A stretch of DNA of 64,000 nt from assembly GCA_963665845.2 (NCBI GenBank), contig OY762492.1, forward strand, positions 2,240,001 to 2,304,000. The letters run 5' to 3'. Made by a program: the position numbers and the translations under genes. The notes below the pieces were generated by a model, which worked only from the letters and a program-made list of their open reading frames with translations, did no database searches and was not told the origin of the DNA. This DNA comes from Candidatus Poribacteria bacterium (lineage in GTDB: Bacteria > Poribacteria > WGA-4E > GCA-2687025). Position 1 is the stretch's first letter. Each line of letters opens with the position of its first letter. Positions 3,337 to 5,597 of the stretch are shown piece after piece.

Positions 3337-5250
3337 ATGAGCGATTCGCGCAACATTGACCTGAACGACATTGTTTTAACGCTTGACGATTTCAAGAACA
3401 GCGGCTGGAAAGACGCCCTGGGTCCGCCTGAGGAGCGGCGCTACTCCAAAATGTATCTCAATCTTAAGACGGCGGCGCGAATCGCTTTTGACAAGGATCA
3501 ACCCGCGCGAGGAAAAGCTCTGCTGCTGCTTTCCAACGCCTGCTCCATGATGCTTGAACCTGAATCCCGCAGCGAGCCTTTCAAGCCGATCTACAAAGAG
3601 TTTCCGTCCGGCAGACGATCACACATTCCCGACGATTTTTTGAAGCAAGATTTGGAGTTCTTTGCGGAGATTGTTGAACATATCGACGATGCGCGGTTAA
3701 AAGCCCGTTTGGCTGACATCCTATGGCTGACGGGCGCCCCCCGCAGAGACCATCAAATGGCTCTGACCGCAATTGACAGATACAGGTCGATTCCGCTGGA
3801 CATCGAAAACTGGCGCGACGACGGAAAGGAATGCTGGCATAGAGCTTTCGCATTGGCTTTCATGCAGAGATCGGGCGCGGGCGATCGCGTTGCCGATATG
3901 GAAAAAGCGATTGTCAGAGCGATTGAGTCTGTAGAATGGCCAAACAGTTTTTTCTGCGTTGAGCTGGCAGATTTTCTCAAGTCCCTCAAGCTTGGAAAAA
4001 ATCATACGCTCAAGATTGCGGAAAAGCTGGAGTCTTTCGTTATCAAAGGCAGCCTGTCAAGCATGATTGCAAACCAGTATTGGACAGCGGCGGAATGGCT
4101 TTTTGCCGCCGGCGAAAATGCAAGGGCTGCAAGCGCGCTTGTCAAAATGGCGGAATGCTATGTTCACGACGGCGACATATACGCGTCGGCGGGGGGGCGG
4201 GGACATGCAGCCGCAACCGATTTTTACCTGCAAGCGATCCATGCGTATGAAAGAATACCGAAAAAAGAGCGCGCAGCGCATCAGGCGGACGACCGAATTG
4301 CCGCGCTCAAGAAGAAGCATGAAAAATCGAGAAACAAGATCGCTGGTCAAATGTCGTCTCTCAAGGTTGATACTCCCGCCAACGATCTCATTGGAATCAT
4401 TGAAGAATCCCGCAAGGCAGTAAGCGGCAAAAGTCCGATAGAAGCGTTGGCGGCGCTTGCGCAATTGCATCAAGTCGCGAATGTCAAGGAATTGCGCGAA
4501 AGCGCTGTCGAGATGATGAAGAAGCATCCAACGCTAACATTCCTCGGAAAAACGCACCTGAGCCGCGATGGGCGCATCCTTGGGCATCAACCTGGAACAA
4601 ACCCGTTTGCGGAAATGTCTGAAGACGCTGTCTGCTTTCAAATGATCGAACAACACATGCTCTCGGTTTCTATTGCGGTTCGCGGCATTTTCATTCCCGC
4701 CCTTGATGTTTTGCATCGAGAGCATCGTTTTAGAAAAGCCGATTTTATTGAACTTGCCAGGCAATCGCCCTTCGCGCCTCCTGGACGCGAAACGCTTTTT
4801 GGAAAAGCGTTGTACGCGGGCTACGACTACGACTTTGCAACGGCGATCCATCTCCTGGCGCCGCAGATCGAAAACATGGTCAGGTTTCATCTGAAGCAGA
4901 GCAGCGCGCAAACGACTCATCTGGACAAGAATGAGAGCATTGAGGACGAGGTCAGCTTGAAGTCGTTAATGGAGCGCCCGGAAGCCGTCCAGATATTCGG
5001 CGGAAATTTGAGTTTTGAGATACGCGCGCTATTCTGCGAACGCGTCGGACCCAACCTGCGAAATCTAGTCGCGCATGGGCTGCTAGACGACGAATCGTCC
5101 CACCAGTCCGTTTACCCTGTTTATGCGTGGTGGTTGTCTCTGCGTCTCATGTTCACATCGTTTCTAGACGCGTTGCTGGACGGGTATGAGGAAGACGAGG
5201 CTCCTCAGGAACTGGACGCTGGGCCGCCTGTTGGGCGCGAGGCGTGGTGA
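3337..5250 (+). CDS. DUF4209-family protein (HEPN-like Rx4H motif) with a MazE-like C-terminal tail
   Basis: AIHLLAPQIENMVR...LF....GPNLRNLVAHGLL is typical of DUF4209. Lower GC than flanks. Ends FLDALLDGYEEDEAPQELDAGPPVGREAW. Confidence 0.7.
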   Translation: MSDSRNIDLNDIVLTLDDFKNSGWKDALGPPEERRYSKMYLNLKTAARIAFDKDQPARGKALLLLSNACSMMLEPESRSEPFKPIYKEFPSGRRSHIPDDFLKQDLEFFAEIVEHIDDARLKARLADILWLTGAPRRDHQMALTAIDRYRSIPLDIENWRDDGKECWHRAFALAFMQRSGAGDRVADMEKAIVRAIESVEWPNSFFCVELADFLKSLKLGKNHTLKIAEKLESFVIKGSLSSMIANQYWTAAEWLFAAGENARAASALVKMAECYVHDGDIYASAGGRGHAAATDFYLQAIHAYERIPKKERAAHQADDRIAALKKKHEKSRNKIAGQMSSLKVDTPANDLIGIIEESRKAVSGKSPIEALAALAQLHQVANVKELRESAVEMMKKHPTLTFLGKTHLSRDGRILGHQPGTNPFAEMSEDAVCFQMIEQHMLSVSIAVRGIFIPALDVLHREHRFRKADFIELARQSPFAPPGRETLFGKALYAGYDYDFATAIHLLAPQIENMVRFHLKQSSAQTTHLDKNESIEDEVSLKSLMERPEAVQIFGGNLSFEIRALFCERVGPNLRNLVAHGLLDDESSHQSVYPVYAWWLSLRLMFTSFLDALLDGYEEDEAPQELDAGPPVGREAW

Positions 5251-5597
5251 GACAGGGTCGGTTTGTTCCGCGCCGAGGCGACATCATCATTATTGACTTT
5301 GAGCCGCAGGCAGGCAGGGAGATTAAAAAGCGTCGTCCAGCCGTGGTGTTGTCCCCTGACAATTATAACGCCGGCGGACTTGCGATTGTCTGCCCCATCA
5401 CGAGCGACCCGCAAGGCCGCCAAATCAACCGGCCTTTTAGAGTGGCAATCCCGCCAGGATTAAGAGTACATGGGTTGATCTTGGTTGATCAAGTTAAAAG
5501 CTTGGACTGGAAAATGCGAAACGCGCAGCTTGCGGCTCAACTTCCAACGTCAACCATGCTTCTGGTTCAGCGGGAAATTGCCGCGCTATTAATATAG
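5244..5597 (+). CDS. mazF: MazF/PemK family toxin endoribonuclease
   Basis: VPRRGDIIIIDFEPQAGREIKKRRPAVVLSP..YN...CPITS...DQVKSLDW..R. GTG start overlaps the upstream stop. Confidence 0.92.
   Translation: MVRQGRFVPRRGDIIIIDFEPQAGREIKKRRPAVVLSPDNYNAGGLAIVCPITSDPQGRQINRPFRVAIPPGLRVHGLILVDQVKSLDWKMRNAQLAAQLPTSTMLLVQREIAALLI

Follow-up and report, generated by a model that had tools for sequence, protein, structure and literature searches.

Toxin-antitoxin modules of the MazEF type are the nearest described relatives of the locus reported here. As in MazEF of E. coli (1ub4) and D. radiodurans (7d2n, 7bye), a PemK-fold toxin is preceded by an overlapping upstream partner that ends in a MazE segment. 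Unlike in MazEF, this partner has no AbrB DNA-binding domain, so that no operator autorepression is expected, and the segment is borne by a 609-residue HEPN protein. By its domain content, Rx4H motif and HEPN fold, the carrier resembles the DUF4209/C6orf70-type TPR-HEPN proteins and PDC-S39, but proteins of the DUF4209/PDC-S39 kind are normally encoded by single genes and end in a short unconserved tail, where the protein described here has the MazE segment. In the consulted part of PMC3710099, DUF4209 is listed among the families of predicted HEPN RNases, occurring as fusions to TPR and within restriction-modification operons. A short neutralizing segment on a larger domain is also known from PanA with Phd-C, in which the larger domain was proposed to be a sensor (NetFlax study; portion of PMC10440598 used here). 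The extra domain of PanA is an accessory of the antitoxin, whereas the carriers considered below are a predicted toxic defense enzyme and a 1100-aa helicase.

Other systems offer a parallel in regulation rather than in parts. The toxin of the fused toxin-antitoxin CapRel is held off until a phage acts on its partner. The same holds for PrrC, a translation toxin guarding the PrrI restriction system, according to the passages of PMC3710099 that treat it. Unlike in PrrC and CapRel, the toxin would here act in trans and be restrained by a peptide attached to the guarded protein. Finally, type II Gabija pairs a MazF-like nuclease with a helicase in defense, its GajC being a split MazF-like fold that replaces GajA; no MazE tail is described in the consulted part of PMC13069673.

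Searches of the literature on DUF4209, PDC-S39 and antitoxin fusions, with most subscription journals outside their scope, returned no HEPN protein or SNF2 helicase with a MazE tail and no experimental test of the DUF4209/PDC-S39 family. Likewise, no such tail is described in the consulted portions of PMC10865869 and PMC7180214, and the main text of bioRxiv 10.1101/2024.01.29.577857 does not mention S39, a family that its supplements may list.

A Two-Gene Cassette in a Variable Slot

The window, i.e., the whole stretch of 64,000 nucleotides analyzed here (Candidatus Poribacteria, contig OY762492.1), contains on its forward strand two genes whose frames are those given by an earlier, sequence-only reading of the same DNA. 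The first (3337-5250, +) encodes a 637-aa DUF7380 and DUF4209 protein, a PADLOC PDC-S39 candidate made of a helical TPR-like/MIT-like N-half, a HEPN C-half and the MazE tail. The second (5244-5597, +) is mazF (PemK_toxin), which encodes 117 aa from a GTG at 5244; a second GTG lies at 5247. The overlap of stop and start noted by that reading is present, the mazF start covering the last Trp codon and the stop of the 637-aa frame, but its extent has to be corrected, as it probably measures 7 nt counted from the GTG at 5244, where relatives have ATG. A Shine-Dalgarno-like AAGGAG (3324-3329, +; pairing energy -8.8) precedes the ATG at 3337, and sigma-70-like promoter matches lie upstream of the cassette at 3242-3270 and 3107-3135 (+), for which the evidence is weak (3 matches vs 1.4 expected in shuffles).

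Right after mazF, at 5600-5638 (+), there is a remnant of a DUF4411 gene, namely its final 13 codons. In G001, a genome of the same genus, that gene fills the same slot together with an ImmA/IrrE-type (HTH) gene (L346:5289-6985), and a DUF4411-type end occurs at the same point in contigs of three runs, from which we conclude that the content of the slot varies among strains. The fusion junction (4780-5720) is spanned in one piece, with zero differences, by contigs of two public runs that may be the window's own source; given these contigs and five other proteins with the same fusion, the junction is not an assembly error.

Other genes of the window deserve mention in their own right. Between the Rieske and VWA genes, two overlapping genes of low G+C (6171-6899 and 6823-7521, both -), absent from G001, encode a conserved 242-aa hypothetical protein and a stand-alone transglycosylase domain, and constitute a candidate defense pair; the 242-aa protein gave a weak nucleotidyltransferase lead. 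A 477-aa ORF (10925-12358, -) resembles, on inspection by eye, the large subunit of a phage terminase and has only a weak unrelated match in NCBIfam, and near it lies a 957-aa gene with an Eco57I-type methylase (13118-15991, -).

A Predicted HEPN RNase

Pfam places DUF7380 at residues 11-180 and the DUF4209 HEPN core at residues 511-602 (4867-5142, +) of the 637-aa protein, and the PADLOC match to PDC-S39, which is a candidate defense label only, extends over residues 6-612 (E 4e-197). The AlphaFold model built on a 149-row alignment is confident (pLDDT 94). Structure comparison of this model relates the N-half to helical repeats resembling TPR and MIT bundles, while the best structural matches of the C-terminal domain are mostly HEPN (Z 6.7-7.9, rmsd 3.0-4.2 over 100-121 residues); these matches are middling in Z, and the assignment is backed by Pfam and by the consulted part of PMC3710099. 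Foldseek returned zero matches at E 0.001 for the whole model or for the C-domain. The Rx4H motif (R575-H580; 5059-5076, +) is conserved in the 149 aligned homologues, with H580 invariant and R575 and N576 retained in at least 90% of them, and is kept in all six family members that carry the tail. The motif, which reads RNxxAH, and the fold agree with the earlier description of a HEPN-like DUF4209 protein, and the 637-aa protein is a predicted anti-phage RNase.

The protein was not found in 40 relatives; at six other loci, from a set of 176 genomes of the phylum, the homologue has no tail and no mazF close by. Viral contigs and phage records contained no relative, and five plasmid homologues align only up to about residue 610. 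In scans of metagenome and genome collections with a degenerate DNA pattern, none of the loci fetched among the matches listed encoded a relative, the pattern being too loose to inform on distribution. Residues 592-637, used in a word search, retrieved no more than P0001 and P0004 from 15 candidates; since known tail-bearers were missed, this search is insensitive.

The Tail Is a MazE C-Terminus

Taken as a single sequence, the last 28 residues (610-637; 5164-5250 with the stop, +) match no Pfam or NCBIfam family and no PDB chain. Since no library profile covers the tail, profiles were built from genes upstream of the phylum's best MazF matches. A 20-row HMM of MazE tails of the phylum, from which the window row and a row from an SNF2-fused tail were left out, recovers residues 610-637 as the best match in the six-frame genome (E 2.7e-4; next 3.8). 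A 9-row HMM made of AbrB-bearing MazEs alone does not reach significance for the tail in the whole genome (E 7.6); applied to the final 60 residues of each of 278 family members, the same HMM places six tail-bearers first, at 13.1-28.3 bits, the next scoring 6.6. Either profile puts these six proteins well ahead of the rest of the 278, which are the best matches listed and not a random sample. Moreover, what a 24-row tail profile matches in solved MazE chains is their C-terminal 30-34 residues (7d2n_E 51-80, E 4.8e-5; 1mvf_D 49-82; 1ub4_C); one unrelated chain is matched as well, at E 0.23. Judged by these profile comparisons, the tail of the 637-aa protein is a MazE C-terminal segment, and the sequence-only reading, which had recognized it by its residue pattern, is borne out for a segment of 28 residues. 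Homologues of the protein do end before it, typically 10-13 residues earlier and in unconserved sequence, 272 of the 278 being devoid of the segment.

Beyond residue 617, both AlphaFold models show the tail with low confidence, as would be the case for a free antitoxin peptide. The last HEPN helix (592-616) takes in residues 610-616, leaving 617-637 free in the model; the first six residues of the tail, being modelled in that helix, may therefore not be free.

An Old Fusion in the HEPN Family

The six carriers among the 278 homologues are 42-84% identical to the window protein. Their C-halves are mostly 46-53% identical between subgroups, and all six tails measure 27-28 residues from the first Leu, with no indels. 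Positions that show no variation among 20 ordinary MazE tails from the phylum are largely preserved (L1 6/6, L4 5/6, E16 6/6, E26 6/6, terminal W 4/5). Conservation in the six is also higher at the conserved columns of MazE than at the variable columns (0.61 vs 0.39, p 0.04, for rows that are not independent). Positions 3-15 depart from the phylum consensus toward more acidic residues, and the tail of P0252 is the most decayed of the HEPN tails. In the N-half tree, the five tail-bearers having this half form one branch (support 97); in the C-half tree, all six lie on one side with weak support (62). Given this divergence and this position on one side of a branch, the recent chance fusion that the sequence-only reading had envisaged is rejected, and the same fusion does exist elsewhere, in five other HEPN proteins; the tail also ends an SNF2 helicase. 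Linkage to mazF is shown for one of the six HEPN tail-bearers, that of the window, which is the one with DNA.

Alleles of the family are mosaic. The window protein (3337-5250) is about 82% identical to P0016 and P0092 in residues 1-335 and about 48% after, a pattern pointing to an exchange of sensor or effector halves. One quick tree suggested that the HEPN half of the window protein came from a tailless donor; this idea was dropped, as a better tree kept all six tail-bearers on one side (support 62).

A Second Fusion, to a PLD-SNF2 Helicase

The same tail ends a 1134-aa PLD-SNF2 helicase in seven of the ten genomes of a related genus, g14 (L285:6627-10031, L286:10250-13654, L287:10321-13725 and L320-L323). 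The helicase is present in all ten genomes; in three it lacks the tail, as do the homologues listed elsewhere. The phylum's three best MazF matches lie behind tailed helicases, and mazF follows three of the seven SNF2 tails. The surrounding clusters comprise type IIG restriction-modification, TIR-TPR, Schlafen-like and Ppl genes. A search of 176 genomes of the phylum, with a profile that included one window row and one SNF2 row, found a tail match in 128 of them; among the 150 matches listed of 253, frames of more than 600 aa occur only in the window's own genome and the seven g14 genomes. The window's genome also encodes a PLD-SNF2 helicase (G000:C1:1681396-1684599), 44% identical to the g14 protein and without a tail match.

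In genome G049, the corresponding genes stand unfused, the helicase stop being followed by 66 nt, a complete AbrB-bearing mazE and mazF (L340:5311-9431). The SNF2 fusion is independent of the HEPN fusion, and G049 has the unfused precursor order; an in-frame deletion from a G049-like arrangement would be the simplest origin of the fusion. For the three mazF-linked SNF2 alleles, dN is 0.015-0.037 against a dS of 0.25-0.59 in the tail, and 0.05 against 0.5-0.6 in MazF, which indicates that both tail and MazF are under purifying selection in these alleles.

Toxin Loss and the Range of Carriers

Behind the other four SNF2 tails, which share a similar junction, mazF is absent, and the genomes in question have only more distant PemK genes. 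These mazF-less tails display a dN of 0-0.044 against a dS of 0.11-0.59. Unless mazF was lost recently, a role as cis-antitoxin alone does not account for such values; further SNF2 alleles of this type show substitutions at conserved places and one truncation. As for the HEPN fusion, a contig at depth 2.9 has a divergent allele at the slot that the cassette occupies in the window, and two points common to both are 407 nt apart there, against 766 nt in the window. This distance leaves no room for mazF behind the sister allele, where the toxin gene is probably missing; the loose ends of the contig, compared by eye, read like P0252. The sequence-only reading had held that tails in homologues devoid of mazF would speak against it, and this is the case in part, for four of the seven SNF2 fusions and probably for one sister HEPN allele.

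These losses can be compared with a census of tail-bearing ORFs, which covered 68 of them at loci selected on their MazF or tail score. In family f6, all 13 sampled members bear AbrB and 10 are accompanied by mazF; as AbrB-bearing mazE genes also lose mazF (3/13), tails without mazF do not prove that the tail is idle when mazF is present. In family f8, AbrB is lacking in 47 of 47 and 35 precede mazF, so that a tail without AbrB is a working arrangement in the phylum; the 47 f8 tails sit on short AbrB-less carriers, which suggests that any carrier may do. Among the eight long fusions with DNA, mazF is present in four. Taken together, the census indicates that in this phylum the tail works on many carriers and that toxin loss is common whatever the carrier. 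The MazE-like antitoxins without AbrB of family f8 are found at loci L259, L263, L267-L269, L272-L284 and L324-L333, and many of these carriers, of 80-290 aa, have an N-part that is rich in Pro, Lys and Arg and repeats the first half of the tail in tandem. Across 401 genomes of another phylum, 45 tail matches included no long C-terminal fusion, the one frame of more than 300 aa being an internal partial match.

MazF and the Missing Antitoxin Gene

The MazF of the window scores 94 bits over the cut-off of PF02452 and falls below the equivalog cut-off of the NCBIfam MazF model (82 of 120 bits). It is full length, aligns to solved MazFs and possesses the near-invariant E26, R31 and T53, which we take to be catalytic positions; the other near-invariant columns are mostly kept. 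There is also an intact sister MazF of 69% identity, and in a run from a different study part of mazF is matched, at about 90%, by two short contigs. In the MazF tree, the window protein sits on a long branch (0.85); the grouping of HEPN-linked and SNF2-linked MazFs into one mobile clade was unsupported in this tree, which is unresolved. Loss of the terminal Trp was also considered as a marker of mazF loss and abandoned, since intact pairs lack this Trp too.

The window's genome (3 contigs, 90% complete) contains one PemK gene and a single tail match, which is on the 637-aa protein, and no PF04014 (AbrB) match was found on this protein or in that genome. The absence of a separate antitoxin gene, claimed from the window, therefore extends to the assembled genome.

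A Defense Protein as Proposed Antitoxin

With a MazE tail at its end and mazF overlapping its stop, the 637-aa protein likely doubles as the toxin's only antidote. On the sequence evidence at hand, we lean toward the reading in which the HEPN defense protein is the de facto antitoxin of MazF, which would make the defense gene addictive. The toxin-binding tail of MazE would replace a separate antitoxin gene on a HEPN defense candidate, after its likely capture by an in-frame deletion from a neighboring mazEF operon, as envisaged for the helicase. The full-length protein would be translated just ahead of the coupled mazF, and would bind and silence the MazF dimer through its tail. In support of such a role, a neutralizing segment on an unrelated carrier neutralized the toxin of another toxin-antitoxin system, namely Phd-C on SUMO (consulted part of PMC10440598). 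The outcome would be a type II pair without DNA-binding autoregulation. Without AbrB there would be no operator control, which would leave the activity of MazF dependent on how much carrier is present and how intact it is; if the large protein were silenced, deleted or destroyed, MazF would be freed. The defense gene would thereby be addictive in a slot of frequent gene swapping, any abortive-infection effect being a by-product.

Alternatively, release of MazF could be what the fusion was selected for, phage attack on the carrier triggering a second-line abortive response. We regard this guard function as rather unlikely, although several observations favor it. Both long carriers are defense-linked, the one through PDC-S39 and the other through its type IIG restriction-modification, TIR-TPR and Ppl neighbors, and the frames above 600 aa among the 150 matches listed belong to these two carriers only. 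The tail survived the exchange of half its carrier among alleles (82% identity in the N-half vs 48% in the C-half), the modelled continuity of the tail helix with the last HEPN helix would provide a possible switch, and PrrC-PrrI sets a precedent for a toxin released upon inhibition of a first-line defense (passage of PMC3710099 on this pair). However, mazEF is found in defense islands anyway, as in G049, so that defense carriers are expected by adjacency; moreover, the tail is missing from 272 of the 278 homologues and from most SNF2 homologues, mazF is often lost, and f8 carriers are short low-complexity peptides. The trigger, tentatively, might be an inhibitor, a protease, a ligand of the TPR-like half or a conformational change of the HEPN dimer. 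It is similarly doubtful that the SNF2 fusion guards a restriction-linked helicase in the same manner, or that MazE segments on unrelated defense proteins are recurrent peptide-grafted tripwires, releasing MazF upon phage inhibition, cleavage or another trigger.

The tail might instead be produced mainly as a separate peptide of 33-38 aa from an internal start, the fusion being incidental read-through, but this is very unlikely. The in-frame ATG (5149-5151, +) put forward by the sequence-only reading as the start of a 33-aa mini-antitoxin does exist, as does a CTG at 5140, and conserved Trp-Trp codons upstream can pair with the anti-Shine-Dalgarno (-9.1); in addition, P0016 and P0092 have a Met four codons earlier, and five of the seven SNF2 alleles one just before the tail. 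The proposal is weakened by the absence of a Met at that position in all five other tail-bearers: P0004, P0252 and P0295 have none, nor is there a Met before the tail in two of the three mazF-linked SNF2 alleles. Furthermore, 13 nt separate the pairing site from the ATG at 5149, a longer spacing than usual, and the site stems from Trp-Trp codons shared with tailless homologues. An internal start is not needed to explain the tail.

There is also little probability that the tail is a scar left behind by an old deletion and tolerated since, next to a weak or inactive MazF on its way to loss: the repeated loss of mazF, the long MazF branch and the decay in P0252 and some SNF2 tails of the mazF-less type agree with it, but MazF is full length with E26, R31, T53 and most near-invariant columns, its sister at 69% identity is intact, tails hold their exact length over deep divergence, and the SNF2-linked tail and MazF pair is under purifying selection.

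Significance

A natural antitoxin has here been cut down to a 28-residue tag on a large unrelated enzyme, twice independently. The unfused precursor in a relative and the toxin-less derivatives compose an evolutionary series, in which a toxin-antitoxin operon may turn into a guard or an addictive defense gene in one deletion. If the guard function were true, release of MazF would report which phage proteins attack these two candidate defense families. Finally, the presence of the tail on a defense-linked helicase as well would tie a suicide toxin to a defense protein.
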